In this document: positions 1 through 36,490 of the stretch, in pieces
How the letters are laid out: every line of letters begins with the position of its first letter
Position numbering within the stretch: the first letter of the stretch is position 1
Assembly: GCA_016839765.1 (NCBI GenBank)
Contig: JAEOTP010000043.1
Coordinates: forward strand, 96,001-160,000
Length of the DNA stretch: 64,000 nucleotides
Direction: 5' to 3'
From: Promethearchaeota archaeon
GTDB lineage: Archaea; Asgardarchaeota; Lokiarchaeia; Sigyniarchaeales; SOKP01
Translations under genes and position numbers: made by a program
Notes under the pieces: generated by a model
Told to the model about the DNA's origin: nothing
What the model saw: the letters and a program-made list of their open reading frames with translations, nothing else
Database searches by the model: none

Positions 1-843
1 ACCTGCTCCCGTTACGTTAATATTGTAGAGAGGATATTCAAAATTCCCATTATCCTTCCATTCATAAGGAATGGCATTTTTTTCAGCAAAATCTGCGTAT
101 TCAAATCCACTACTCGTCATATTTAATGGATTAAAAATATTTTCTTGAATATATTCTATCCAAGTTTGATTTGTAACTTTTTCAATTAAATACCCAAGTA
201 ATTGAAAGCCTGCATTAGAATAATGGAATTCCGATCCGGGTCGCCAATGCCAATTATAGTGATCATAATATAGACCATTAGGGTTTAAACTGCCGTTTAG
301 AAACTCTTCTAAAGAAGGTCTATCATCCCATTTAATGATTTCCCCTCCCAAATCCAGATTCTCATTAATCCAATCAATTGTTTGATTATCAAAGTAATAC
401 TCGAGAGACCAAAAAAGGTTGGTTTGTAAACCTGCTTTATGAGTAACAAGCATACGAGTTGTAATAGGTATATTTGGGTAATTAGGATGTCTTACCTCAA
501 ATGGGAGATAGTTGTTGATATCACCGTCTAAATTAACCAAATTACTTTCATTTAGTTGAAGGATTGCGGTTGCTGTAAATGTTTTAGTGATGGAACCAAT
601 CATATATACGGTATCTAAGTCAGGTTGTTCACCAAAGCCTCTTGCCCAAACTATACTATCATTAATAATGATCCCTGCTGCTAATGATGGAATTTCATAT
701 TCTGCCATAATCTTTTGAATTTTAGACTCAAAAGATTCTTGTGGGGGTGGAAGGAAGGTTATAATGAGAATAACTGTGATTCCAGCAGAAATTACACAAG
801 CAATTATAATTAATCCTATAATAATCTTTTTATTCATTTTCAT
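1..843 (-). CDS. Serine hydrolase, beta-lactamase/AmpC-like family, N-terminal membrane anchor; runs off the window edge
   Basis: Hand translation from ATG 843: MKMNKKIIIGLIIIACV...; SxxK motif (IGSITK) and YxN motif (FHYSNAGF). Missing from the ORF track because the stop lies outside the window. Confidence 0.85.
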   Translation of the reverse strand, partial: MKMNKKIIIGLIIIACVISAGITVILIITFLPPPQESFESKIQKIMAEYEIPSLAAGIIINDSIVWARGFGEQPDLDTVYMIGSITKTFTATAILQLNESNLVNLDGDINNYLPFEVRHPNYPNIPITTRMLVTHKAGLQTNLFWSLEYYFDNQTIDWINENLDLGGEIIKWDDRPSLEEFLNGSLNPNGLYYDHYNWHWRPGSEFHYSNAGFQLLGYLIEKVTNQTWIEYIQENIFNPLNMTSSGFEYADFAEKNAIPYEWKDNGNFEYPLYNINVTGAG

Positions 844-1009
844 TTTACCTTCATTTCTAATAGTTAGATTCAACTCGAATTGGATAGAAAAAATACTGAA
901 TAAGTTATTAATTTGATATCATAGAAAACTATTAAATCATTTTGTATTGAACTAAATTTTAATAATTTATAAAAATCAAATTTTAATGCTCCAAATATCT
1001 TAAAATTAT

Positions 1010-1459
1010 ATGGATTCTAATACACAAATCAATGAATTCAACTTTGCTATTAAAAAGCTTTTCCATGGAAGAGTAATGGAAAGAGTTACAGCCGCTAGAA
1101 CACTTGGACATCTTAAAGAGGGTCGTGCTACAAACTTACTCATTAAAGCATTAAATTCAGAAAGAGATTCAATTGTAATTAATAGAATTATTGAAGCAAT
1201 GGGAGAAATAAAAGATCCTAAAGCCACAATTCCAATAATTAACTTCTTAAAAAAAGAATTAGAAAAATCTGAAGATGAGCAAGATAAAACTCGTTTATTC
1301 TTAATAATAGAGACATTAATGAAAATAGGAGATAAAAGAGCTTTAGAACATTTAGGTATACTCTTAGAGTCATGTGATGCAGATATTAGAAAACTAACTG
1401 AGCAAGCTTTTGAGTGTATAGATCCTAGTTTTAAGGAAAATTTAAAACAAAGTAAATAA
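1010..1459 (+). CDS. HEAT/PBS-lyase repeat protein
   Basis: Repeated AARTLG / IIEAMGEI / IETLMKIGDKRALEHL helical units. Confidence 0.75.
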   Translation: MDSNTQINEFNFAIKKLFHGRVMERVTAARTLGHLKEGRATNLLIKALNSERDSIVINRIIEAMGEIKDPKATIPIINFLKKELEKSEDEQDKTRLFLIIETLMKIGDKRALEHLGILLESCDADIRKLTEQAFECIDPSFKENLKQSK

Positions 1460-1505
1460 ATAAAAAACTAAACATTGAAATTGAAAAATTAAATCGTAAA
1501 CGAAA

Positions 1506-1832
1506 GTGAATATTATGTTTCCAGAATTTATTTCAGAGCTTTTTCAAGAAGTAAATGGCAAGAATGATAAACAAGATGTGTCCATTTTCACATTGTCGAC
1601 TTGCATGTGGTGCAAAAAGTGCAAAAGATATCTTAATGAAAAGGAAATCAAGTATAAATATATAGATGTTGATCAAATTACATCAGATCAGAAATCAAAA
1701 ATTTTACAATATTTAAGAGAAAATTACAAACCAGATAGAATCTCATATCCTTTCTTAATATGCGATGATAAATTCGTCGTAGGATATGATCCAAATAGAT
1801 ATGAAGAATTAATGAGGGAGGGTGATAATTAA
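1506..1832 (+). CDS. Glutaredoxin/NrdH-like redoxin
   Basis: TLSTCMWCKK CxxC motif, ISYP cis-Pro motif, VVGY; ATG at 1515 is an alternative start. Confidence 0.85.
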   Translation: MNIMFPEFISELFQEVNGKNDKQDVSIFTLSTCMWCKKCKRYLNEKEIKYKYIDVDQITSDQKSKILQYLRENYKPDRISYPFLICDDKFVVGYDPNRYEELMREGDN

Positions 1833-2199
1833 AGTGAATATGGAAACATATGAGGGTATGCTTGAATATATTAAACAGGTTAGTAAAAAGAATAACTGGA
1901 TTTTAAATAGTCACCAAGATACATTAAATGAATTGATTGACGGCTTAGTAGAAAATAAAAAGAAACATACATATCAATCTTGCCCATGTCGTCTTGCTTC
2001 TGGTGTAAGAGATTTAGATAGAGATATTATTTGTCCCTGTGATTATGCTCCTTTGGATATAAAGGAGTATGGAGCTTGTTATTGCAATCTATATATGCGT
2101 AAAAATTTCTACGAAATTATAGGAAAGGAATATGTTAATATCCCAGAAAGAAGACCTGTTGAAAAGGAAAAAGCAGTACTAGAATCTTTTAATAAATAG
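1822..2199 (+). CDS. Ferredoxin-thioredoxin reductase catalytic-subunit family protein
   Basis: CPC...CPC...CYC signature; likely start is ATG 1840. Confidence 0.9.
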   Translation: MIIKVNMETYEGMLEYIKQVSKKNNWILNSHQDTLNELIDGLVENKKKHTYQSCPCRLASGVRDLDRDIICPCDYAPLDIKEYGACYCNLYMRKNFYEIIGKEYVNIPERRPVEKEKAVLESFNK

Positions 2200-2288
2200 T
2201 ATTTTTTGTTGTTTTTAAGAATTGAATAATTAGAAACCAATTTTTTATAAATAAAACTCTTAAATATTATTTTTTCTCTTTTTATATT

Positions 2289-2447
2289 ATGCCAGATGAA
2301 GAAATTAATGATGATGAATTAAAAGAAGAATTAGATAGGGCTTTTAAGGCTAATGAAGCAAAAAAAGACCACTGTGGAACTGCTCTACCTAGTAATAAAG
2401 AAATAGGTATTCAAAGAACGAACGTAAAATTAAAAAAAGAGGATTAA
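2289..2447 (+). CDS. Small acidic protein (52 aa) with a single Cys, not in the ORF track
   Basis: MPDEEINDDELKEELDRAFKANEAKKDHCGTALPSNKEIGIQRTNVKLKKED*; AT-rich promoter-like sequence upstream, T-tract downstream. Confidence 0.6.
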   Translation: MPDEEINDDELKEELDRAFKANEAKKDHCGTALPSNKEIGIQRTNVKLKKED

Positions 2448-2600
2448 ATTAAAATAATTTTTTTTTATATTTCTTTTCTAATTTTTTTTGATAAATAACT
2501 TCTCAACAATTATAAATAATTACTTTAAAATTCAAAAATTAATATTTTAATATAAATCATTAAATGATGTCTTTATAAGATCATATCTTATAATTGAAGA

Positions 2601-3593
2601 GTGTTTGTTATGAAAGAACGAATTAAAGGAAGAGAAAATTTTCCCACTAAAGAGATTGACCCAGATAATTTCATAGAGGATGAAGAAGTAAAAACTATGG
2701 TTGAAAATATCGATAATATCAAATTTAGTCAGGAGGATTATTATAAAATTTATAATTGTGTACATTGTGGAGAATGTGAATCAGAAGAAGAACGTATTAC
2801 CTTGAAACAAAAATTTCTAAAAGATGGGAATATGGTTGAGGGTCTTGATCAGATGATTGAATGTTTTGAAAAATATCGGACACCTTATCCAACAAATAAA
2901 ATGAGGATAAAAAAGCCGAGAGGGTTAGCAAAAAATTCTAATACCCTATTTTTCATGGGATGTCTTTCTACCATTAGAATACCACGGTATACCGAACATG
3001 CTCTTCAATATCTTATGAAACAAAAGATAGATTTTACCATTTTGGATAAAGAAATATGTTGTGGTTGGCCGTGGTTTGCTAGTGGTTCAATGCGTGAATT
3101 TGAAATTTGCCAAAAGGAAAATCTTGAAATCTTCAATAAATTTGATAAGATCATTTGCTTATGTCCAGCATGCTACTTTTTATTTAATAAGTTTTATAAA
3201 CCAGCTATGGATAAAGATATTAGATTTGAATATATAGTTGATTACCTAAAACCATCCAAAGACCAAAAGCAAGGAGCAGTTGGGGTACAACATTTATGTC
3301 AACTTATGAATAGGGGAAGAGAAGGTGTAGATAAATTTGTAGATAAAATTCTAAAAAAGTCTGGCTATAAAGTAATTGATGTCCCTCATTGGTGTTGTGG
3401 AGGGGGTTTAGGGTATATGCATCGAACTGATATAATCGAAGCTATTGCAAATAAAAGAATGATTGATTTTGATAGAGAAGATATTGATTATATTACAACT
3501 TATTGCGTTAGTTGCTGGTGGATATTAAAACGGTTTAGCAAATTAAGTAAAATAAAGCCAAAAGCTGTAGATTTTTTTGAATTAATCCTATAA
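2601..3593 (+). CDS. CCG-domain Fe-S protein (HdrD/GlpC/HdrB-like), copy 1
   Basis: CVHCGEC; FFMGC..EICCG..CPAC; QHLC..WCCGGG..YCVSC. Confidence 0.85.
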   Translation: MFVMKERIKGRENFPTKEIDPDNFIEDEEVKTMVENIDNIKFSQEDYYKIYNCVHCGECESEEERITLKQKFLKDGNMVEGLDQMIECFEKYRTPYPTNKMRIKKPRGLAKNSNTLFFMGCLSTIRIPRYTEHALQYLMKQKIDFTILDKEICCGWPWFASGSMREFEICQKENLEIFNKFDKIICLCPACYFLFNKFYKPAMDKDIRFEYIVDYLKPSKDQKQGAVGVQHLCQLMNRGREGVDKFVDKILKKSGYKVIDVPHWCCGGGLGYMHRTDIIEAIANKRMIDFDREDIDYITTYCVSCWWILKRFSKLSKIKPKAVDFFELIL

Positions 3594-3628
3594 TTAGAAT
3601 TTCCTTTAAAGATTTAATAAATAAAAAA

Positions 3629-4588
3629 ATGACTTTAAAAAGAAAATACCCCACTCAAGAAGTAAATCCAACTAATTTTTTAACTAATGAAGAAGTATTA
3701 AATCTTCTTGAAACTAAGCACACTTATAAATTTAAACAAAAAGATTTTCACAAACTTTATAATTGTGTTCATTGCAGAGAATGTGGCACCTCTGATGAAA
3801 GAATTTTATTAAAACAGAAATTTTTAAAAGATGGAAATAAAATTGAAGGTTTAGAAGAAGTAAAAAAGATTTATGAAAAATATGGAACTCCATATAAGGA
3901 TAGTAAAAACCGGATTAAATTCCCTAATGGTATCCCTACTAAAAGTGATACACTCCTTTATTTCGGGTGCTTTACAAGTGTTAAAAATCCTAGATATGGG
4001 GAAAATGTTGCGAACTACTTATTAAAACATAATGTTGAATATACCATTTTAAACAAAGAGATATGTTGTGGTTATCCCATTTTAGTCACTGGAATAATAG
4101 ATACCTATTATAAGCTTGTTGAGCGAAATAAGAAGATTTTCAAAGAAAGAGGGTTTAAAAGAATAATAACTGTTTGTCCCAGTTGTTATATGGTCTTTAA
4201 AAAACATTATAGTGATACAGGTATTAAGATAGACTATTTTACTGATTATCTAAAACCAGCTTCTAATAGGAAATCTGGAGATGTCTGTATTCAACATGCC
4301 TGTCCATTGGTATATGACTGTAAACCAGGGATAGATAAACAGATTGAAAACATTTTAAAAAAATCTGGGTATAGGGTTATTGATATTCCTTATTTTTGCT
4401 GTGGTGGCGGTGGAGGGATGCAATTAATCGAAGATACAATTGAAAAGATTGCAAAATTAAGGATGGGTGATTATAGAGGAAATTTCACCACCTACTATTG
4501 TCCTGACTGTGGATGGTTTATTAAGTTTTTCGGAAGAAAGCTAAAGATTAAACCAAAGCCAAAAGATATATGTGAACTTCTACTTTAA
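3629..4588 (+). CDS. CCG-domain Fe-S protein (HdrD/GlpC/HdrB-like), copy 2
   Basis: CVHCREC; YFGC..EICCG..CPSC; QHAC..FCCGGGGG..YCPDC; collinear paralogue of the upstream gene. Confidence 0.85.
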   Translation: MTLKRKYPTQEVNPTNFLTNEEVLNLLETKHTYKFKQKDFHKLYNCVHCRECGTSDERILLKQKFLKDGNKIEGLEEVKKIYEKYGTPYKDSKNRIKFPNGIPTKSDTLLYFGCFTSVKNPRYGENVANYLLKHNVEYTILNKEICCGYPILVTGIIDTYYKLVERNKKIFKERGFKRIITVCPSCYMVFKKHYSDTGIKIDYFTDYLKPASNRKSGDVCIQHACPLVYDCKPGIDKQIENILKKSGYRVIDIPYFCCGGGGGMQLIEDTIEKIAKLRMGDYRGNFTTYYCPDCGWFIKFFGRKLKIKPKPKDICELLL

Positions 4589-4603
4589 TTGAAAATATTA
4601 GTG

Positions 4604-5671
4604 CTAAATCATAGATATTTGGTAAGAATCTTCATGATGAGTATCTATCAGCCGATAAGCTAAATTTTTGAAACAATTTTCTATATTTTCTCCTGTTAAA
4701 GCAGAAGTTTCAAAATATTCAACATTTAATGCCTTTGCTAATCGTATGGCATCCGATTGGCTCACAATTCTTTCTTTGATCAAATCGATTTTATTACCTA
4801 TTAAATAACCTTCAATTTGAGGATTCTTTACAAAATATTTATCAATATCTTGATGCCAGTTAGAGATATGAGCAAAGGATAACGGTTTCGTTACATCATA
4901 AATTAATATAAAAGCACTTGCGGCTTCATAGAACTGCTTTCTTATTGCTTCAAACTTAGTTTGTCCTCCAATATCCCATAAAACTAACTCAACAGAATCA
5001 TCTTGTACATAAAATCTCTTTTGTGTTATGTTAAGTCCCATTGTGGGAACATAAGCCCTCATAAATACATTATCTGTGAATTTTAGAACTGTAGATGTCT
5101 TACCCACTGTTGGATCGCCAAGAATTATGACTTTAAACTTTTTTAAATCTTTTTCTTCAATCTCTTCTTTAATATCATATTCCTCATTAGCTTCTATTAG
5201 GATATTACTCTTGGAACGTAAATAATCAACTGTTTCACACAAGTTATTGCATAATATGATAATTTCTTCAGATAGTTTTTCTTTATCAAGATTATTTTCT
5301 TCAAATTGAATGATTTTTTGAGTTGTCTCATTAAAATATTTATCAATATAACTCATATATCTATAAAAAATAATATCATCTTTTTCATTAAACAAGAAAG
5401 CTAAAGCTGATTTAGCAGTTCCATTCTTTTGAGAAGTAATCTCTCGTTCAAAATATTTAATTACGATTTTTATTTTTAAATGTTTAAAAGGGTAAATTAA
5501 TAATATTTCAGGGATAAATGCTTGATCTCCAGAAAGGAGATTGTTACATTTTAATTCAATAAGGTTTCTAAATTCCCCTGGAATGTCTGATGGATACCAA
5601 AAAACAGATTTTGGCTCATTTACATCATCTAGATTAATATAAAAAATAGCAGGTATGAAATTTAAACTCAT
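4604..5671 (-). CDS. Rab/Ras-like small GTPase with an ~170 aa N-terminal domain
   Basis: G1 GDPTVGKTS, G2 YVPTMG, G3 WDIGGQ, G4 GNKID, G5 ETSAL. Confidence 0.9.
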   Translation of the reverse strand: MSLNFIPAIFYINLDDVNEPKSVFWYPSDIPGEFRNLIELKCNNLLSGDQAFIPEILLIYPFKHLKIKIVIKYFEREITSQKNGTAKSALAFLFNEKDDIIFYRYMSYIDKYFNETTQKIIQFEENNLDKEKLSEEIIILCNNLCETVDYLRSKSNILIEANEEYDIKEEIEEKDLKKFKVIILGDPTVGKTSTVLKFTDNVFMRAYVPTMGLNITQKRFYVQDDSVELVLWDIGGQTKFEAIRKQFYEAASAFILIYDVTKPLSFAHISNWHQDIDKYFVKNPQIEGYLIGNKIDLIKERIVSQSDAIRLAKALNVEYFETSALTGENIENCFKNLAYRLIDTHHEDSYQISMI

Positions 5672-28636: not shown

Positions 28637-29740
28637 TTAATATTTTGAAGGAGTTTTAGATTTGATTTTATATTTTGGTATCTCTTGAACTTTTTTCAAT
28701 TCTTTCTCAAAATCTCTTTTTTCTCTAAGGAACCTCTCTTTATCTCTTTCTAATTTTTCTCTTTCTCTTCTAATAGCATTTTTTTCAGTGTCTATCATCG
28801 ACTTTTCTTTTACTAAATGCTTATAATCATTATTTAATCTTTTTTGTTTATCTTCCAAATCACGAATCTTGCGTTCTAATGAATAATAAGTATCTTCCGC
28901 TTTAGGAACTTTCCTATTTAGCTCTTTTAATCTTGTTTCTTGTTGTTGTTTCTTTTTTTCCAAATTTCTTACATCATTTTCAATTTTATCTCTAAAGTTT
29001 TCCAAATCTTCTTTTTTTTTATCAATTTCACGAGCTTTAAGATTTAGATCTTTTTTTTTAATACGATTTTTTTCTTTTTCATCTTTTAATTTTCTTTTTT
29101 CATCATCAATCCGGTTTTTTTCATCAAAAATGTTTTTTCTTAGATCATTGATTTCTTTATTTAAATTATCCCTTTCTTTTGAAAGATGTTTGATTTCATT
29201 TCTCAACTCCATTAATTCATTTTCTAATTTTTCAATTGTTCTCTCTAATGCATTTTCTCTTCTTTCCATTCCAGGTATTTTGGTTTTAATCTCTTTAACA
29301 CGAACTTCTGCTCTTGCTTTTTCTCTTTCTAAATATTTTTTCTCACTTTCTAAAGCGTCTTTTAGTCTATCTAACTTTTCTTGATATTTATCTAGGTCGG
29401 CATTTTTTTGATCTAACTCTCTTTCTTTTAAACTTAGATTATTTCTATGTTGCTTTATTCCATTTTTCATTCTTTCTAATTCACTTTTTAACTTTTCACG
29501 TTGGTTTAGAAGATTTTTGACTTCAAGTTCTTTCTCTTTTCTCTTTTTTTCAAGTTCTTTTATATTATCTTGATACCCTTCAAGTTTTTTAATAACCTTT
29601 TCCCAATCGCTTTTTTCTCTGTTTAACTTTATCCTTTCTTCCTTTATCTTTTTAAGTAGTCTTGTATCTTGAATAATTTCGATTTCTTCTTCTGGCGTTT
29701 TCTCTCGAATTTGATACTTAGGAATTGGTTTATCATTCAT
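28637..29740 (-). CDS. Long coiled-coil protein with an internal duplication and matching terminal motifs
   Basis: K/E/R-rich heptads; IPKYQIREKTP at the N-terminus and IPKYKIKSKTP at the C-terminus. Confidence 0.8.
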   Translation of the reverse strand: MNDKPIPKYQIREKTPEEEIEIIQDTRLLKKIKEERIKLNREKSDWEKVIKKLEGYQDNIKELEKKRKEKELEVKNLLNQREKLKSELERMKNGIKQHRNNLSLKERELDQKNADLDKYQEKLDRLKDALESEKKYLEREKARAEVRVKEIKTKIPGMERRENALERTIEKLENELMELRNEIKHLSKERDNLNKEINDLRKNIFDEKNRIDDEKRKLKDEKEKNRIKKKDLNLKAREIDKKKEDLENFRDKIENDVRNLEKKKQQQETRLKELNRKVPKAEDTYYSLERKIRDLEDKQKRLNNDYKHLVKEKSMIDTEKNAIRREREKLERDKERFLREKRDFEKELKKVQEIPKYKIKSKTPSKY

Positions 29741-29944
29741 GATATTTCTTTAATTCATTTAATTTCTTAATTAAATTATATTAATATTAACTCTAAAGTG
29801 TTTGCAATTTGAAATTAGGCTCTTTTTGTATTTCTTGTAGATTCTATTTATATATTATAACTTCCATTATTTTTATTAAGAAATTACAAAAAATAATTAA
29901 AAAACTCAATAAAATTAATAATTCGAATAATTAGGTGTTTTTTT

Positions 29945-30373
29945 ATGGAGTTTGATGAAGAATTTGATGAAGAGTTTGATGATGAATTTGATGAAGAACT
30001 TGATGAAGAACTTGATGAAGAATTAGAAGAACCTTCTGCAAAAACTCCAGCGGAAGAGGTTAAAGCTAAAACTCCAGCGGAAGAGGTTAAAGCTAAAACT
30101 CCAGCAGTTAAAGCTTTTTCGGCAGGAAAAAAGATTTCAGTTTATTTTATGTCGACAATAGGTCCTGGTGAAAAAAAGCAAAAATTACTCATAAACACAG
30201 GAAACAGCGTTGGGGATATAAAAGAGACTGTTGCGAATTTATTTGGTTTAGATCCTGCTGATTTTCATTTATCTTCAGGTGGAATTACCATGGATGAGAG
30301 TTCAAATGTAAGTGAATATAACGTGAATGATGGAGAAGATATACTATTAATTCCAGCAAGTACTGCTGGTTAA
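29945..30373 (+). CDS. Ubiquitin-like modifier 1 with an acidic, repetitive N-terminal tail; ends -STAG
   Basis: Beta-grasp pattern SVGDIKETVANLFGLDPADFHLSSGG..VSEYNVNDGEDILLI; terminal Gly; E1/E2/JAMM/RING genes nearby. Confidence 0.88.
   Translation: MEFDEEFDEEFDDEFDEELDEELDEELEEPSAKTPAEEVKAKTPAEEVKAKTPAVKAFSAGKKISVYFMSTIGPGEKKQKLLINTGNSVGDIKETVANLFGLDPADFHLSSGGITMDESSNVSEYNVNDGEDILLIPASTAG
29948..30028 (+). repeat. Degenerate 12-bp coding tandem repeat encoding (F/L)DEE
   Basis: TTTGATGAAGAA / CTTGATGAAGAA units, about six copies. Confidence 0.85.
30041..30105 (+). repeat. 27-bp coding tandem repeat encoding KTPAEEVKA (two exact copies plus a partial one)
   Basis: AAAACTCCAGCGGAAGAGGTTAAAGCT at 30041 and 30068; partial copy at 30095. 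Confidence 0.92.
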
Positions 30374-30390
30374 AAAAAATCATTATCCTA

Positions 30391-31200
30391 TTAGTTTTTC
30401 TTTTTTAAATTTTTTTCTTTTCTTGATGGAATCAGAGCAATTTCGTCATCATCATCAATAGCATAATCTTTTATTTGTGAGTTTTCATGCAATAATATTC
30501 CTCCAGAGGATAAAAGAAAATCTTCTAAATTATAGTCAAATAATGTTCCAATTCTTTCTTTAACACTAAATATTAATTCTGTTGTATCAATTATAATGAT
30601 TTTTGTTTTTTCACCTGGCTCAACTAATGATCTTATATAAACTCGTATCTGGTCTTCCTTTTCAATAAAATTTGTAGGAGGTGTATAAATTATCCCCTCG
30701 TCAGTCTTATCCCTGTTTTTCAACATATTTTCGATTAATATTTTTCTCTCGTGTTTATCAAAATACAACATTTCTCTGATAAACATTATTTTATCCATTT
30801 TTGATAATTCTAAAAGATTTATTTTTTCTAATTCTTCCCCACTAAACACAGAAAAAATATATTTATTAATTATTTCCATATTATCATATGATTCATTTGA
30901 TTCAACATAATCTTCTATTGAAGGCATGACATCAATATAATCCTCAATAAGATCAATAGGTTTTTTTTTAATCGATTTTTGTTTTTTGACATATTTTTTC
31001 TCGCTTTTCCTCTCATCCTCACTACTCGCAGATTGAATAATTGTATAGATAGTACTGGTGGATAGTACTGAGACACTACCGATAACTAGAAAGAGAAATA
31101 AAGGAATACTTTCTATATGGAATAAGAAAAAAGCCATATAGATAATTACAAAAATAATATAAAGGGTTATAATACTTAAAACTCTATTTTTTTTCTTCAT
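30391..31200 (-). CDS. Membrane-anchored protein (2 TM) with a C-terminal UBL domain lacking the terminal Gly
   Basis: VYIRSLVEPGEK..VKERIGTLF..DFLLSSGG..IKDYAIDDDDEIALIP aligns to both modifiers; ends SRKEKNLKKKN. Confidence 0.82.
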   Translation of the reverse strand: MKKKNRVLSIITLYIIFVIIYMAFFLFHIESIPLFLFLVIGSVSVLSTSTIYTIIQSASSEDERKSEKKYVKKQKSIKKKPIDLIEDYIDVMPSIEDYVESNESYDNMEIINKYIFSVFSGEELEKINLLELSKMDKIMFIREMLYFDKHERKILIENMLKNRDKTDEGIIYTPPTNFIEKEDQIRVYIRSLVEPGEKTKIIIIDTTELIFSVKERIGTLFDYNLEDFLLSSGGILLHENSQIKDYAIDDDDEIALIPSRKEKNLKKKN

Positions 31201-31255
31201 GATTTTTTATTAAATTATTATCTAAATTTCTAATATATAATTTAAAATTTAAATT

Positions 31256-31280
31256 CCATTGGAATGAATTTGAAGTTTTT
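31256..31280 (-). promoter_or_regulatory. 25-bp motif, copy A, upstream of the membrane-UBL gene
   Basis: Minus strand reads AAAAACTTCAAATTCATTCCAATGG, identical to plus strand 32121-32145. Confidence 0.7.
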
Positions 31281-31284
31281 ATTT

Positions 31285-31956
31285 TCATACACCTTGCATT
31301 TTTTTTCTAACTTTAGAATATTTATCTGTATCTAATTGGAATGTAATTCTTTTTTTTTCTTTTTCAATTTTTATTAATTTCAGTTTTTTTAAAACATATA
31401 AATATTTTTTAATTATATTATGATTCTTTTTTAAGTTAGTTGCTATTTCTGTAATTTTTAATGCTTTATCTTCCTTTTTCATAAAATTAATTATTTCTTG
31501 AACAATAGCCAAATTTAAATAATAATAGAGCTCGTCAAGTTCTGGATTTGAATCGTATTTATAAATAATTCTTCGATTGTTAATTTTTTTTGATCTAACA
31601 AATCGAAATTTTTCCAAACAAGATAGATGCCATAAAGCTTGATTACTTCCGATATTTAGAGCATTCATTATTTCATTAATATTTGACGGATTTTTCTTTA
31701 TGTAATTAAAGATTTCATTCCTTACTGGATGTTCAATAATATTATTTTTCATCAATTTTGTTCCAGGAATGATCATTCTCTTTTTAATAAGATTTTTAAT
31801 GGTAATTTCAATCCTAGCTTTATTGATAAAGGGATTTGATTTTACCCTATTACTAATAAATACAACAATGTTTTGTATTGAAAAGAATGGTTTTTTTTCT
31901 AAATATTCTTTTACTAATTCAAGAATAATAGATTCGACATTATTCATAGAGTTCAT
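31285..31956 (-). CDS. Tandem winged-helix (ArsR-like) transcriptional regulator
   Basis: HPVRNEIFNYIKKNP..EIMNALNIG..WHLSCLE and a second HTH, ITEIATNLKKNHNIIKKYL. Confidence 0.85.
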   Translation of the reverse strand: MNSMNNVESIILELVKEYLEKKPFFSIQNIVVFISNRVKSNPFINKARIEITIKNLIKKRMIIPGTKLMKNNIIEHPVRNEIFNYIKKNPSNINEIMNALNIGSNQALWHLSCLEKFRFVRSKKINNRRIIYKYDSNPELDELYYYLNLAIVQEIINFMKKEDKALKITEIATNLKKNHNIIKKYLYVLKKLKLIKIEKEKKRITFQLDTDKYSKVRKKMQGV

Positions 31957-32120
31957 AACCCTATACTTTTATAATGTTAAAATATTTGGATTTTGTAAAT
32001 ATATATTCTTTCTGCAACATTATTTTACACCTTATATAATTATTAGGCATTCATTCAATTTATAATATCATTTCTTAGGCATCCAAATAAGTTTCTTTTT
32101 ATTTTAAGTTAAAAAACTAA

Positions 32121-32145
32121 AAAAACTTCAAATTCATTCCAATGG
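32121..32145 (+). promoter_or_regulatory. 25-bp motif, copy B, upstream of the Ubl2-E1-E2-JAMM-E3 genes
   Basis: AAAAACTTCAAATTCATTCCAATGG, followed almost immediately by TATA-like TTTTATAA. Confidence 0.7.
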
Positions 32146-32225
32146 GTTTTATAATATCGTTTTAATGCGATTTTATTAAACTTAAAAAATAAAAAATTAC
32201 AAAATAAAAAAAAGTCGTGAAATAA

Positions 32226-32552
32226 ATGAGTTTTGAAGAAGATTTTGATGAGGAATTAGAACCTGTTAAATCTAAAACACCATCTACCAAAATTCCTTCA
32301 GCAGGAAAGAAATTGACTTTATACTTTACGTCAACCATTGGACCTGGTGAAAAGAAGGAAAAATTAACGGTAAATGATGCTAATCATGTAAGTGATATTA
32401 AGGAAACATTAGGAAATTTATATGGCCTTGATCCTAATGATTTTCACTTATCATCTGGTGGAGTTACTATGGATGAAAATAGTCAATTAAAAGATTATAA
32501 TTTAAATGATGGCGACGATATTCTTTTGATTCCTGCGAGTACTGCTGGGTAA
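32226..32552 (+). CDS. Ubiquitin-like modifier 2 with a short acidic tail; ends -STAG
   Basis: Close paralogue of 29945-30373: VSDIKETLGNLYGLDPNDFHLSSGG..LKDYNLNDGDDILLIPASTAG. Confidence 0.9.
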   Translation: MSFEEDFDEELEPVKSKTPSTKIPSAGKKLTLYFTSTIGPGEKKEKLTVNDANHVSDIKETLGNLYGLDPNDFHLSSGGVTMDENSQLKDYNLNDGDDILLIPASTAG

Positions 32553-32631
32553 ACTTATATAATTTTCTACATAAAGTATAATATGAAGGCATTAAGTCCT
32601 TCATTTTTTTTTATTTTTATTATTATTATTA

Positions 32632-33867
32632 ATGGTGATAATATTGGATAAAGATTCAGATTTTTTTGCAAAAGCATTGTCAGTAAAAGAGAGAGATTTG
32701 TATGATCGCCAGTTTCGTCTCGAGGGCTGGTCCCAAAAATTAGTAAAAAACTCGAGAGTGTTAATTGTTGGTGTAGGAGGTTTAGGATGTGAAATTGCTA
32801 AAAATTTAGCCATGTTAGGGTTAGGCCAATTAGATCTTGTTGATTTAGATATCATTGAACATTCTAATTTGAATCGTCAAATTCTTTTCACAGATGCGAA
32901 GATAGGAGAACCTAAGGCAGTTGTTGCTGCTCGAAAACTAAAGGAAATTAACCCTAATATTATTGTTAAGGGATATCATACATCTCTAGAAAGATTAAAT
33001 CCTGCATTATATCAAGCTGCTGAAGTTGTAATTGGGGGCCTTGATTCAATGAATGCGCGCTTGAACTTAAATGCTCAATGCATAAGATTTAGAAAACCAC
33101 TCGTAGATGCAGGAGTATCAGGTTATCATGGTCATATTTACACTATCTTTCCGTATCAAAATGCTTGTTATGAGTGCAATCCATTACCAGTAAGTGAAAG
33201 TGATGAAATGGCAGCTTGTACAGTTGTTGGAGTCCCCAGAAAAAGGATTCATTGTGTTTTTAAAGGAGATATGGCATTTAAAGAAAAGTTTGATAGAGAT
33301 CCAAATCCAAAAGATATAAATGATATTAAATTTATTCAAAAAGTTGCAAATGAATTGGTCAATAAACATAATTTCTTACCTGAATACACTAAAGATGATA
33401 TCATAAAAATCATTGATAGGCATGATCCTGGAATAATTACCATAAATGCAGTTATTTCTGCTTTACAATCACATGAGGTAGTAAAAATTCTTCATTGGAA
33501 AAAAGGTCATAAAGGATTAGGAGAACCTATTAAAAATTATGTGATTTTTAATGCCATGACGATGAAATTATACCATATTGAAAAAACGAGAAATCCAGAA
33601 TGTTCTCAATGTGGTAAATCTGTTAGAAGAGTAGCTATAAAAATGAGGTCTCAATCGCCATGTATAAATATAATTAAGATATTAAAGAAAAACGGATTTG
33701 AATTGGAGCCTGATTTTGAACCTGTGCTAACCTTATTGGATTTCAATGATATTAAAGTAATTGATTTAGAACAGAATACTATTGAAAACGGTTTAAGAAA
33801 TTACGAATTTATTACAGTTGCAGGGTTTAAGGGTGGAGAAATTTATGTAACCTTAAAATTAAAATGA
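32632..33867 (+). CDS. Ubiquitin-like activating enzyme E1 (Uba2/Uba3-like)
   Basis: LYDRQ, GVGGLGCE, DLDIIEHSNLNRQ, CYEC...CSQC Zn site, catalytic ACTVVGVPRKRIHC, C-terminal extension. Confidence 0.93.
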   Translation: MVIILDKDSDFFAKALSVKERDLYDRQFRLEGWSQKLVKNSRVLIVGVGGLGCEIAKNLAMLGLGQLDLVDLDIIEHSNLNRQILFTDAKIGEPKAVVAARKLKEINPNIIVKGYHTSLERLNPALYQAAEVVIGGLDSMNARLNLNAQCIRFRKPLVDAGVSGYHGHIYTIFPYQNACYECNPLPVSESDEMAACTVVGVPRKRIHCVFKGDMAFKEKFDRDPNPKDINDIKFIQKVANELVNKHNFLPEYTKDDIIKIIDRHDPGIITINAVISALQSHEVVKILHWKKGHKGLGEPIKNYVIFNAMTMKLYHIEKTRNPECSQCGKSVRRVAIKMRSQSPCINIIKILKKNGFELEPDFEPVLTLLDFNDIKVIDLEQNTIENGLRNYEFITVAGFKGGEIYVTLKLK

Positions 33868-33973
33868 AATTGTAGTCAAAAAATATATTTTATAAAAGTT
33901 TAATGAAAAAAAACATATATAAAAGAGAAAATTTTTATTATAAAAGCAGAGTAAAACAAAAAGGGTTGAGAAA

Positions 33974-34501
33974 ATGAGTATAAGAAGTAGTCGCGTTTCC
34001 CGCGATTTTGCTGGATTAAAAAAAATGCTTAAAGTTGGTACTATAGTTCAACTAAAACCATTTAATTCTAAAAAAAAGAGCATTGATCATTTAGCTATCA
34101 CAATTAAAGGCCCTAAAGGTACTGTCTTTGCTGGGGGACTTTTTAAACTAGAAATGAGATTCCCTGCTCAGTATCCTAAGCAGCCTCCTTTTGTAAGAAT
34201 GCATACTCCAATTTGGCATCCAAATTTTTGGCCAAAACCAAGTGAATACAAAGGAAAGAGAAATATTTGTCTAGCATTAATAGACCCTTCCTTAATTGGG
34301 AAAAAGGGTGGATGGAGTCCTTCAAAAACCGCTGTTACAGTAGTTCAAGCAATAATTGCTATGTTAAATACCCGGGGTAAATATGTAAACCCAACAGATG
34401 TTTTTAATAAAAAAGCAGCAATAGAAATGATGAAAAATCCTAAATTTTTCGAGAAAAAAGTTAAAAATTTAGTGAAGAAGTACGCTAAGAACAAGTGGTG
34501 A
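33974..34501 (+). CDS. Ubiquitin-conjugating enzyme E2 (UBC fold)
   Basis: GPKGTVFAGGLF..FPAQYPKQPP..IWHPN..ICL..WSPS. Confidence 0.95.
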   Translation: MSIRSSRVSRDFAGLKKMLKVGTIVQLKPFNSKKKSIDHLAITIKGPKGTVFAGGLFKLEMRFPAQYPKQPPFVRMHTPIWHPNFWPKPSEYKGKRNICLALIDPSLIGKKGGWSPSKTAVTVVQAIIAMLNTRGKYVNPTDVFNKKAAIEMMKNPKFFEKKVKNLVKKYAKNKW

Positions 34502-34508
34502 AATCATA

Positions 34509-35315
34509 ATGAATATTGATGAGAAGAAAAACAATTTAATCAAAGAAGCAATAAAGCAAAAAATTAAAGAGAAAATTAAAAAAGAATTACTTGAAGAGAT
34601 ATATACCGAATTACAATTAGAAGAAGAATTAAGGGAAGAAATAACTTCTGAACTTATTGAAACCCAGCCATTAGAGCATTCAGAAACAGTTAAAGCCAAA
34701 CTTGAACCCATACCAATGGAACCGGTAAAAACATATGCTAAGAATGATAAAGCTGAAGCAAAAGTAGCTCTAACAGTAAAAGCTGTCCTTAAGATCGCTA
34801 GTCATTCATTAAAATATGCTCATTCTAAAATTCGAAGAGAGGAATGGGTTGAAGTGATAGGATTACTCGCTGGAAAATTTGACAATACTAAAGGAGTCCT
34901 TCATGTGGAAGATGCCTATCCAATGGGACATGGTACAGCAGTTTATGCTGAAATTAAAGATTATAAAAATTATGTTAGAGCTTTTAAAGACATAAAAAAG
35001 AACAGCCTTTTTATTTGTGGATGGTATCATTCCCATCCTTCTTATGGATGTTTTATGTCTAAAGAAGATTTAGGAACTCAAGCAAGATACCAAAAATTAT
35101 GGGATAAAGCAATTGCGCTAGTTATAGATCCATACCAAATTGATGGCACTTCATTGGGTTTTGAAATCTATCGTGCGAATTTTAAAACAAATAAGTGGTT
35201 TTCAGTACCATTTGATATTAAAGGATATTTAGATGTGAGAATGTTGCCGGAAATTTTGGAATTTATGAATCCAATCATTGAAGGTAAACCTGTTTATTTA
35301 GAATATGATGAATGA
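34509..35315 (+). CDS. JAMM/MPN+ isopeptidase (Rpn11/CSN5-like) with an N-terminal coiled region
   Basis: EVIGLLAG...GWYHSHPSYGCFMSKED..TQ..ALVIDP. Confidence 0.93.
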   Translation: MNIDEKKNNLIKEAIKQKIKEKIKKELLEEIYTELQLEEELREEITSELIETQPLEHSETVKAKLEPIPMEPVKTYAKNDKAEAKVALTVKAVLKIASHSLKYAHSKIRREEWVEVIGLLAGKFDNTKGVLHVEDAYPMGHGTAVYAEIKDYKNYVRAFKDIKKNSLFICGWYHSHPSYGCFMSKEDLGTQARYQKLWDKAIALVIDPYQIDGTSLGFEIYRANFKTNKWFSVPFDIKGYLDVRMLPEILEFMNPIIEGKPVYLEYDE

Positions 35316-35338
35316 TATTTTTTGGTGAAAATTAAACA

Positions 35339-36490
35339 ATGGTTAAAAAGAAGGGTTTAGCAATAATATTTATTGTTTTTCTAATAATTGGTATAATACA
35401 TAGTTCTATCTCAATTTCCTTAAATATTTTTTTAACTTGGATATTTATTGGTTTATGGATAATTTTTACGATTAAGATTTTTGAAAATATAAAGCAGCAT
35501 CGCGAATTCAATTCACCACATAATACTGCTTTTTTTGTAATCATCCCTTTATTCATCGGAATTTTTTACTCCATTTGGGGGTATTTTACAGGTATATTGG
35601 GTGAAAACCTTCTTGAAGGCTCAAATATATATTTTAGTTGGTGGAGTCTCATTTTTGGATTTCCATTTATAATATATGGTTCTTATTCTTTATATCGTTG
35701 TTTTAAGAAATATAATGTAATCTATTTTGGAACCAAGTCAGTAAAAGCTAGGACATTAGGATATATTTTAACTTCCACAGTTATTCTTTTTATAATAATT
35801 TATTGGGTAATGTTTTATAGTGTTATAGAATTTTATGATTCTCTATTAACCCCTCTTCATTTTTCTTTAAATCTAAATCTTCTATTATTATTCATTGCAT
35901 CATTATTGATCTTTATTATTTTTGGATTAGCTAGTTCACATAGAACACTTCCAACATTAACTCGGGATTACATTGCTCAACGTACTAGAAGAATAAATTC
36001 ATTAAGTACTCCTACAATTCAAAGGCAAAGGGTACGTACAACAACTAGAACTACTCCATCACCTTCAAGAAGAACTGTGACTCAAACAACGAGGTCTAGA
36101 TCTCATTCATCGAGAACAACACCTACTTCCCAAAGGCAAAAAACTAGAACAACAAAAACTACTAGAACTAGAGCCGTAAAAACAACTTCAAAAGCTATAA
36201 ATTTAGATAAATATAAACCAAGAGCATCATATCTGTCAGAAGATGATTTTAAATGTATTTTTTGTTTTAAGCTGCCAAAACTACCCGATGATAATGGCAG
36301 AGGGATAATTGTATGTCCAAATTGTAGATATCCGGCTCATGCTGATGAATTTAAAGATTGGCTAAGAACCTCAAATCTCTGTTCAAGATGTAGTACTCCC
36401 ATTCCATCCAGATTTAAACATAATCCTAGAATAATTAGTATAAAAAATTATCAAATAGTCTATAGGCATTTTTTAAAGAAGAAAAGATAA
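35339..36490 (+). CDS. Multi-pass membrane protein with a C-terminal RING-variant domain (putative E3 ligase)
   Basis: About 6 TM helices, an R/T/S-rich linker, then C-x2-C-x16-C-x2-C-x4-H-x2-E-x10-C-x2-C with the RING Trp (KDWL). Confidence 0.85.
   Translation: MVKKKGLAIIFIVFLIIGIIHSSISISLNIFLTWIFIGLWIIFTIKIFENIKQHREFNSPHNTAFFVIIPLFIGIFYSIWGYFTGILGENLLEGSNIYFSWWSLIFGFPFIIYGSYSLYRCFKKYNVIYFGTKSVKARTLGYILTSTVILFIIIYWVMFYSVIEFYDSLLTPLHFSLNLNLLLLFIASLLIFIIFGLASSHRTLPTLTRDYIAQRTRRINSLSTPTIQRQRVRTTTRTTPSPSRRTVTQTTRSRSHSSRTTPTSQRQKTRTTKTTRTRAVKTTSKAINLDKYKPRASYLSEDDFKCIFCFKLPKLPDDNGRGIIVCPNCRYPAHADEFKDWLRTSNLCSRCSTPIPSRFKHNPRIISIKNYQIVYRHFLKKKR

Follow-up and report, generated by a model that had tools for sequence, protein, structure and literature searches.

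Two paralogous ubiquitin-fold genes with Ala-Gly ends and tandem-repeat acidic tails in a Lokiarchaeial ubiquitin-type gene cluster

Genes at the locus

This study concerns two paralogous genes for ubiquitin-like proteins (Ubls), here called Ubl1 and Ubl2, which lie in a 64,000-nucleotide stretch of a Promethearchaeota archaeon genome (assembly GCA_016839765.1, contig JAEOTP010000043.1, positions 96,001 to 160,000), hereafter the window. The source genome has a size of 3.3 Mb and is 96% complete, the window has a G+C content of approximately 29%, and close homologues are labelled Promethearchaeota/Lokiarchaeota. The locus spans positions 28637-36490 and contains, in this order, the genes for a coiled-coil protein, Ubl1, a membrane Ubl, a winged-helix regulator, Ubl2, an E1, an E2, a JAMM metalloprotease and a transmembrane (TM) RING-like protein. 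Past position 36490 the genes are of the housekeeping type (GTP cyclohydrolase, RibD and a radical-SAM CofH-like gene). The features that define the two modifiers are the following:

29945..30373, + strand: Ubl1, a 142-residue ubiquitin-fold modifier with a 63-residue disordered tail and a 79-residue beta-grasp core
30344..30370, + strand: the C-terminal LLIPASTAG of Ubl1, with the stop codon adjoining the Gly
32226..32552, + strand: Ubl2, a 108-residue paralogue of Ubl1 with a 29-residue tail, heading the enzyme genes

An earlier annotation made from the letters of the window, here termed the sequence-only reading, had reported that both genes end in LLIPASTAG and a stop. The list of open reading frames (ORFs) confirms this, because both C-termini read DILLIPASTAG with a TAA stop immediately after. 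The report of similar cores and differing tails also holds: the two proteins are 69% identical, and they diverge mainly in the N-terminal tails, which have 63 and 29 residues before the core. The last nine residues are the same in Ubl1 and Ubl2, and the two proteins therefore probably share one cascade.

The Pfam ubiquitin profile (PF00240, cut-off 25.4 bits) matches Ubl2 at 28.2 bits. The AlphaFold2 (AF2) model of Ubl1, for which the input was an alignment of 63 diverse homologues, contains a confident beta-grasp core with the order b-b-a-b-(helix)-b (residues 63-137, predicted local distance difference test [pLDDT] above 90) and a tail of low confidence (residues 1-60, pLDDT 43-58). The top Foldseek match of this model is the Caldiarchaeum subterraneum ubiquitin (CsUb) in 6fno_D, where it is bound to its Rpn11 homologue; CsUb, ubiquitin, ISG15 and NEDD8 are all matched with a Foldseek probability of 1.00, and SUMO2 is a distant fold neighbour at rank 50. 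The Pfam matches of the Ubl1 tail to eIF3_subunit and the Spt5 CTD nonapeptide are weak (E 0.02-0.05), and we took them as low-complexity noise. The median dN/dS of the core is 0.10 for Ubl1 and 0.056 for Ubl2. Both genes are under purifying selection, and this selection on the Ubl1 core speaks against Ubl1 being a dead copy.

The Ala-Gly terminus and its processing

The activated end of the ubiquitin family, Gly-Gly, was not found in Ubl1 or Ubl2; both end in Ser-Thr-Ala-Gly. This end is strongly conserved. The STAG sequence is invariant in 120 close Ubl2 homologues, the Ubl1 homologues (n=119) end in IPAS[T/V/I]AG, and a scan of 1.8 billion representatives indicated that the motif IPxS(T)AG is kept down to approximately 40% identity. 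In the 63-sequence alignment, A141 and G142 are among just seven invariant columns. The single terminal Gly in place of Gly-Gly, as proposed from the sequence, is thus borne out by an Ala-Gly pair that is invariant in 63 diverse and approximately 240 close family members, and the Gly, whose loss in homologues would have spoken against the proposal, is kept throughout. The observation on which the sequence-only reading was built is therefore confirmed as real and conserved, and the interpretation given with it is confirmed in part.

The part that requires revision concerns processing. Both proteins were said to be made mature, with no propeptide. This is correct for the two genes of this genome, neither of which has a C-terminal propeptide of the Caldiarchaeum type, but it does not hold for the family, in which the Gly is followed by one to seven further residues in 75 of the 120 Ubl2 orthologues and 22 of the 119 Ubl1 orthologues. 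These extensions vary in identity (YF, RLI, K, LN, QDKHRFF and others), and the single Ubls found in other families of the order have STAG followed by C, M, I, K, R or MP. The extensions stem from minor changes of the stop codon over common 3′ DNA: the region reads GGG TAA ACT TAT ATA A here, GGT AGA CTT ATA TAA in the relative G007, and TAC TTT TAA in others. A Gly that never varies, ahead of residues that do, is the hallmark of a C-terminus uncovered by proteolysis and subsequently activated. Judging from these alignments, trimming after the Gly is probably part of the biology of the family, though this genome would need none.

Head-to-tail Ubl precursors occur in relatives. The protein P0241 (L055:59-1177) contains three units and P0242 contains two, and the junctions read IPHSTAG/SEYM, IPFSTAG/ADDDFEDF and IPHSQAG/ADDFEDL. 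P0241 is present on two short contigs from two assemblies, and every unit of the precursors carries a separate tail with acidic and KSKTP parts. The proposal that the JAMM enzyme acts only in deconjugation consequently fails to generalise, since extended orthologues and poly-Ubl precursors exist.

P0241 and P0242 represent a polyubiquitin-like gene organisation in archaea. As in eukaryotic polyubiquitin genes, such arrays need cutting after the reactive Gly; unlike polyubiquitin, the units have diverged, their own tails form spacers between the cores, and the arrays are not in the genome of the window. In addition, the STAG-type Ubl module ends several larger proteins (P0257, P0267, P0272 and P0244, the last being L044, G018:C6), with a free S(T/R/H)AG end. 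These fusions include a HerA-like ATPase joined to a Ubl, a CDC48_N-VWA-Ubl protein, and a domain of approximately 200 residues with no Pfam match that is followed by a Ubl.

The enzyme genes and the proposed cascade

The genes downstream of Ubl2 are as follows:

32632..33867, + strand: E1 of the ThiF family, 411 residues, GxGGxG at 47, CxxC at 179 and 324, candidate catalytic Cys196
33974..34501, + strand: E2 (UQ_con), 175 residues, HPN at residues 82-84, Cys99, net charge +28
34509..35315, + strand: JAMM/Rpn11-like metalloprotease, 268 residues, HxHx7Sx2D motif intact
35339..36490, + strand: multi-TM RING-like protein with a polybasic, S/T-rich linker of approximately 100 residues and a C-terminal Cys-rich finger

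The E1, E2 and JAMM genes form one co-directional run with intact catalytic motifs. The closest matches of the E1 are UBA1, UBA2 and UBA3, in their active adenylation domains (E of approximately 1e-38); as in UBA3, a Cys region is inserted and the C-terminus is extended. The E2 matches ordinary ubiquitin-conjugating enzymes (UQ_con match of 90 bits), and the closest solved structure to the JAMM protein is the C. subterraneum Rpn11 homologue 6fjv.

On this evidence, both Ubls are probably conjugation-competent modifiers of the ubiquitin family that belong to an Ala-Gly class in Lokiarchaeia, and we favour this explanation as a whole. According to this explanation, the adjacent E1 would adenylate the terminal Gly and thioesterify it through Cys196, the Ubl would then be passed to Cys99 of the adjacent E2, and transfer to lysines would be aided by the membrane RING-like protein. 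The Rpn11-like JAMM would reverse the modification, and in relatives it may also trim extensions or poly-Ubl precursors after the Gly; with the stop codon directly after the Gly, the two proteins of this genome would skip the trimming step.

Two other functions can be set against this cascade. The sequence-only reading had drawn a parallel with UFM1 and ATG8/ATG12, and the mature forms of these proteins do have a single C-terminal Gly; moreover, the P-x4-G spacing recalls UFM1. The parallel is superficial, however. The profiles PF03671, PF02991 and APG12 give no match at E up to 0.1, the E1 matches UBA5 only at approximately 1e-16 compared with approximately 1e-38 for UBA1/2/3, the E2 is a UQ_con protein with HPN and the Cys, and structural comparison places the Ubl beside ubiquitin, ISG15 and NEDD8. 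The UFM1 and ATG8/ATG12 families rely on non-canonical E1s (UBA5, ATG7) and E2s (UFC1, ATG3/10), which were not found here. Judged by sequence and fold, a single-glycine pathway of this kind is scarcely credible.

Alternatively, the Ubls could be sulfur carriers of the MoaD/ThiS/SAMP type rather than protein modifiers, given that the E1 belongs to the ThiF family and that MoeB and ThiF are among its matches. Such carriers end in Gly-Gly, unlike the Ala-Gly proteins described here, and the E2, JAMM and RING-like genes in the same gene run, the UBA3-like Cys insert and C-terminal extension of the E1, and the poly-Ubl precursors and N-terminal fusions ending in STAG all suit a conjugated tag instead. 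A sulfur-carrier role is therefore very improbable.

Tandem repeats and tail length

The N-terminal tail of Ubl1 contains two tandem arrays:

29951..30024, + strand: 12-bp tandem array, unit TTTGATGAAGAA, 6.2 copies with 90% matches according to Tandem Repeats Finder (TRF), encoding (F/L)-D-E-E
30038..30118, + strand: 27-bp tandem array, with 2.4 exact copies over 30041-30105 (100% matches, TRF)

The acidic units read FDEE, FDEE, FDDE, FDEE, LDEE, LDEE and (LEEP), and Asp and Glu account for 21 of the 29 N-terminal residues. Translated, the 27-bp units give two copies of AKTPAEEVK followed by AKTPAVKAF, and they bear K-x-K-T-P motifs. An exact 27-bp duplication together with a six-fold 12-bp array is far beyond chance. 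The Ubl2 tail is a short version composed of FEEDFDEELEP and VKSKTPSTKIPS. In these respects, namely the (F/L)DEE unit that occurs about six times, the acidic content, the exact 27-bp repeats and the short form in Ubl2, TRF and the translations agree with what had been read from the sequence.

A comparison of repeat numbers across relatives revealed differences of whole 12-nt and 27-nt units. In the closest relative, G019 (dS of 0.039 over the Ubl1 core), the tail lacks exactly 24 nt, which corresponds to two 12-nt units, and exactly 27 nt, which corresponds to one unit. In G013 and G022 (dS of 0.15), the Ubl1 tail is shorter by exactly 12 nt. Furthermore, both 27-nt copies carry one synonymous variant per genome (GCG/GCG here, GCA/GCA in G013), which points to recent duplication or homogenisation. 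Ubl1 homologues with at least 89% identity have lengths of 125, 129, 136 and 138 residues, compared with 142 here, and tail length varies in nine of the 11 clusters with a core identity of at least 92%. For 85 of 114 Ubl1 homologues the tail length equals 2 mod 4, and hydrophobic residues of the acidic array most often follow one another at a spacing of 4. The gain and loss of whole tail units by slippage is therefore well supported.

The tails consist of a polyanionic (F/L)-D-E-E array and, adjoining the core, between one and three K-x-K-T-P units; both arrays would quickly gain and lose whole in-frame units through replication slippage or unequal exchange, leaving Ubl1 with a bounded length polymorphism. 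The Ubl1 tails have 42-66 residues and are never lost, and the Ubl2 tail has 29 residues in 80 of 119 homologues. The data on tail length represent instability within bounds and not adaptation. Of the claim that tail length is tuned by slippage, the slippage stands, with unit-exact changes of 24 and 27 nt at a dS of 0.04 and variation in nine of 11 clusters; the adaptive tuning is not supported by these data.

Possible roles of the tails

Several features of the tails are conserved beyond the genus. In the 63-sequence alignment, K51 and P53 are nearly invariant. The K-T-P element, situated approximately ten residues ahead of the first strand, and the acidic-hydrophobic period are conserved order-wide, and both are also present in each poly-Ubl precursor unit and in several domain fusions. 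Conserved to this degree, the tail appears not to be noise. The motif K[SA]KTP has five occurrences in the approximately 2844 ORFs of the genome, and four of the five fall within Ubl1, Ubl2 and the C-terminal end of the coiled-coil protein; plain K-T-P is not enriched proteome-wide (137 observed vs 136.6 expected).

The proteins of the cluster also differ sharply in charge. Ranked by net charge per residue, Ubl1 and Ubl2 fall at proteome percentiles 0.1 and 1.0, compared with 99.7 and 97.9 for the E2 and the TM-RING protein. The linker of the TM-RING protein (approximately 100 residues) has a net charge of +14 to +21 in 12 relatives, including families in which the linker sequence is unrelated. 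The most economical reading of these patterns is that the acidic array is an electrostatic, multivalent handle by which the basic E2 and E3, or else readers, would bind the modifier. By analogy with SUMO tails, the lysines of the K-x-K-T-P units are most economically read as putative acceptor sites; according to AF2 and the sequence, the protein does have a disordered, Lys-bearing N-terminal tail, as in SUMO.

A different explanation is that the tails are neutral disordered spacers or solubility tags whose repeat number drifts in the manner of a microsatellite, constrained only by composition, such that the long and the short forms are equivalent. The length does vary among near-identical proteins with no visible pattern, AF2 finds no structure in the tail, and units of 12 and 27 nt keep the reading frame, which makes changes cheap. 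However, families of the order, poly-Ubl units and fusions all retain the period of 4 and the K-T-P element, the Ubl1 tail stays within 42-66 residues and the Ubl2 tail is fixed at 29 in most homologues, and the modifier and its E2/E3 occupy opposite extremes of charge. We therefore regard neutrality of the tails as rather unlikely.

Several points weigh against the explanation that we favour, in which both Ubls are conjugated modifiers with tails of this kind. Charging, transfer, trimming and targets are all steps that we infer. The Ubl1 score for Pfam ubiquitin, 24.2 bits, is slightly under the cut-off, and the RING-like finger has no Pfam match and was identified by its Cys pattern alone. 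The genome contains six ThiF-family and three UQ_con genes, and another pair could serve Ubl1. With regard to the tail, polybasic membrane-proximal segments are common on topological grounds, the charge complementarity of Ubl, E2 and E3 is only a correlation, and the tail contacts nothing else in the AF2 model. The length steps inside near-identical clusters are not only multiples of 4. A SUMO1-type fold-back of the tail onto its own core is unlikely, since the cores are themselves acidic, with net charges of -7 and -8.

Two known short motifs were considered for the acidic array and rejected. An LC3-interacting region or Atg8-interacting motif (LIR/AIM) does not fit, because the spacing is F-x-x-x-(F/L) and not [WFY]-x-x-[LIV], and the core EFFDA of the FFAT motif (two phenylalanines in an acidic tract) is absent.

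Comparison with known systems

The operon of Candidatus Caldiarchaeum subterraneum encodes CsUb, an E1-like protein, an E2-like protein, a small RING finger protein and CsRpn11 (PMC5654768, PMC6043591). The Ala-Gly system is best described as a variant of this type of archaeal ubiquitin operon. In both, a ubiquitin-fold gene is clustered with genes for E1-like, E2-like and RING-like proteins and an Rpn11-like JAMM, and short C-terminal propeptides follow the reactive Gly, although in the Ala-Gly family these are found outside the present genome. CsUb has a Gly-Gly end, a propeptide of nine residues and no N-terminal tail, whereas the present system has an Ala-Gly end, a long acidic tail built from repeats, and two free paralogues in addition to a membrane-anchored one. 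Unlike the small RING protein of Caldiarchaeum, the RING-like protein here is multi-TM.

Experimental precedent for an Ala-Gly end is available from bacteria. In Ensifer aridi, BilA ends in V-A-G followed by A, the JAMM protein BilC cuts after the Gly, and an E1 with a CYS domain and an E2 perform conjugation (PMC10557695); an Ala-Gly end is thus served by an E1, an E2 and a JAMM. In the BilA family the Gly is universally conserved, and as many as nine non-conserved residues come after it (PMC10557695). The same pattern was found here, with one conserved C-terminal Gly followed by non-conserved residues and with JAMM, E1 and E2 genes in the operon. By description, the locus can be likened to type II BilABCD (E. 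aridi BilA/BilB/BilC/BilD), in which the Gly is likewise preceded by Ala and is accompanied by a JAMM, an E1 and an E2; BilABCD, however, is a bacterial defence system without an N-terminal repeat tail or a RING partner.

The likeness to SUMO (Smt3, SUMO1-3) is architectural. Both have a beta-grasp core, a disordered tail with acidic residues and lysines, and paralogues that differ mainly in this tail. The SUMO end reads T-G-G, and the end here reads T-A-G. In contrast with SUMO, there is no Gly-Gly end, and the tail has three to five times the length and is built from tandem repeats. The SUMO profile PF11976 (Rad60-SLD) gave 21.9 bits for Ubl2, under the cut-off of 23.8, and did not match Ubl1. 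The acidic N-termini of SUMO proteins have been described as regulatory disordered elements (bioRxiv 10.1101/2024.01.04.574143). A more far-reaching proposal is that the locus encodes a SUMO-like pathway beside a Gly-Gly ubiquitin pathway, in which the tag would be directed by K-x-K-T-P, a consensus also borne by its own tail, and could therefore build chains, the (F/L)DEE array would be a multivalent handle for the polybasic E2 and the membrane E3 or for readers, with a valency that evolves by slippage, and the Ala would provide insulation from the Gly-Gly cascade. We consider this proposal unlikely; if true, consensus-directed tagging and insulated parallel Ubl pathways would predate eukaryotes.

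A ubiquitin gene cluster was already known in Lokiarchaeota (PMC9192718). In the papers open to our search, we found nothing describing an Ala-Gly or single-Gly ubiquitin end in Asgard archaea, or the tails or paralogues. The unit-exact dynamics of the repeats, the duplication history, the poly-Ubl precursors and the charge complementarity are newly added here. Asgard ubiquitin systems are used for reconstructing the origin of eukaryotic ubiquitin signalling, and the Ala-Gly class breaks the Gly-Gly rule yet keeps an E1, an E2 and a JAMM of canonical type, together with a tail architecture resembling that of SUMO. Because the tryptic remnant would have 19 residues for Ubl2 and approximately 49 for Ubl1, these modifiers would be invisible to proteomics based on the di-Gly remnant. 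The Ubl1 tails, with their range of 42-66 residues, form a natural series for probing the function of disordered tails in modifiers.

Duplication history

Other families of the order have one Ubl, which is of the Ubl1 type (EKKQKLL, an acidic (L/F)DE(D/E) array and two SKTP units). The gene of this single Ubl is located between the coiled-coil gene and the E1 gene and immediately precedes the latter, which is orthologous to the E1 described here. In a maximum-likelihood tree, the Ubl2 clade has 100/99 support and a long stem and falls among the Ubl1 sequences of the genus. The single-Ubl layout and the tree indicate that Ubl1 retains the ancestral place and tail. Ubl2 would then be a genus-level duplicate that now heads the enzyme genes. 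The sequence-only reading had described the tails as expanded by tandem repeats; on this history, Ubl1 did not gain its length from a form like that of Ubl2. The long acidic form appears to be ancestral, and the Ubl2 tail is derived, reduced and stable in length.

The Ubl trio (Ubl1, Ubl2 and the membrane Ubl) is conserved, and matches were found in 22 of the 24 genus genomes. No match to Ubl2 (E up to 0.001) was found in G032, G033 and G038, which are single-contig genomes of the same order, and the Ala-Gly system was thus not found order-wide with Ubl2 as the query.

A second, Gly-Gly cascade in the same genome

In the whole genome, PF00240 detects only three Ubl modules, all of which are in this locus. 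A further cascade is located on another contig:

Contig C33, L053 (G000:C33:160001-165000), second Ubl cascade: 627-1115 (+), 1151-2023 (+), 2077-2634 (+) and 2640-2900 (-)

This set comprises a JAB protease, a 291-residue ThiF E1, a UQ_con-like E2 and an 87-residue ORF ending in ARVIGG-YSY. Pfam misses this Gly-Gly Ubl, which was identified by fold prediction; the 87-residue protein has a predicted ubiquitin fold with approximately 25% identity to eukaryotic ubiquitin in a structural alignment. Among its 120 close homologues, 119 contain [RK]V[VI]GG, which is followed by zero to ten variable residues. The Gly-Gly type is present in eight of the 24 genus genomes, compared with 22 of 24 for the Ala-Gly type. 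Judged by gene content, Ala-Gly and Gly-Gly cascades coexist in this genome, and we infer that the penultimate Ala separates them. Such coexistence would make this prokaryote a natural example of two Ubl pathways insulated from each other.

The presence of other enzymes raises the question of whether Ubl1 belongs to the adjacent cascade at all. It might use another E1/E2 pair, or it might act without being conjugated, as an acidic regulator or decoy. Ubl1 is transcribed separately and lacks the 31-nt upstream element that is common to Ubl2 and the membrane Ubl (see below), and two further E1/E2 pairs are available on C23 and C33. However, the nine terminal residues match those of Ubl2, the Ala-Gly pair is invariant in Ubl1 orthologues, the single Ubl1-type gene of other families is directly upstream of the orthologous E1, and the C33 set has its own Gly-Gly Ubl. 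We consequently regard a role of Ubl1 outside the adjacent cascade as improbable and retain the explanation in which both Ubls are charged by the same E1.

Two more C33-type copies were observed in G000 (C95 and C76). The C23 pair (L054, G000:C23:9001-15000) consists of the third E2 (1059-1505, +; UQ_con, 87 bits) and a 523-residue ThiF-family E1 (3454-5025, -), approximately 2 kb apart, and no Ubl was identified adjoining it.

Neighbouring genes and transcription

The remaining genes and elements of the locus are the following:

28637..29740, - strand: coiled-coil protein, its gene oriented divergently from Ubl1, in which each end bears K-T-P (REKTPEE, IKSKTPSKY)
30391..31200, - strand: membrane-anchored third Ubl-domain paralogue, 269 residues, with a C-terminal Ubl domain ending in IPSRKEKNLKKKN
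31285..31956, - strand: winged-helix (ArsR/HTH_5-type) regulator, identified by Pfam, between the two Ubl arms
32121..32151, + strand: 31-nt element that precedes the Ubl2 start by 75-105 nt and has no counterpart upstream of Ubl1
31250..31280, - strand: inverted copy of the 31-nt element, upstream of the membrane-Ubl gene, 94% complementary
32583..32612, + strand: terminator-like hairpin and T8 between the Ubl2 stop and the E1 start, 7 bp with three G-C pairs

The membrane Ubl has a TM-like segment at residues 5-50, and its gene is conserved next to Ubl1 across the genus. It has no terminal Gly and is therefore not conjugatable. An orthologue of the coiled-coil gene adjoins the single Ubl in another family of the order; in one such orthologue from another family (L031:473-1324, -), there are two N-terminal and three C-terminal K-T-P motifs.

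The sequence-only reading had proposed separate promoters for the two modifiers, and the layout agrees with it. Ubl1 is flanked by one divergent and one convergent gene and must therefore have its own promoter, and the 31-nt element occurs at Ubl2 and not at Ubl1. A scan for sigma-70 promoters returned 18 sites vs 21.5 expected, which is uninformative for an archaeon with 26% G+C. The core of the 31-nt element, TTCATTCCAATGG, has just two exact occurrences within the window, and the three nearest relatives, G013, G022 and G019, have kept it. The two copies bracket the gene of the winged-helix regulator, and the inverted repeat is a candidate operator. The hairpin between Ubl2 and the E1 gene could be an attenuation point, with the modifier made in excess over the enzymes.

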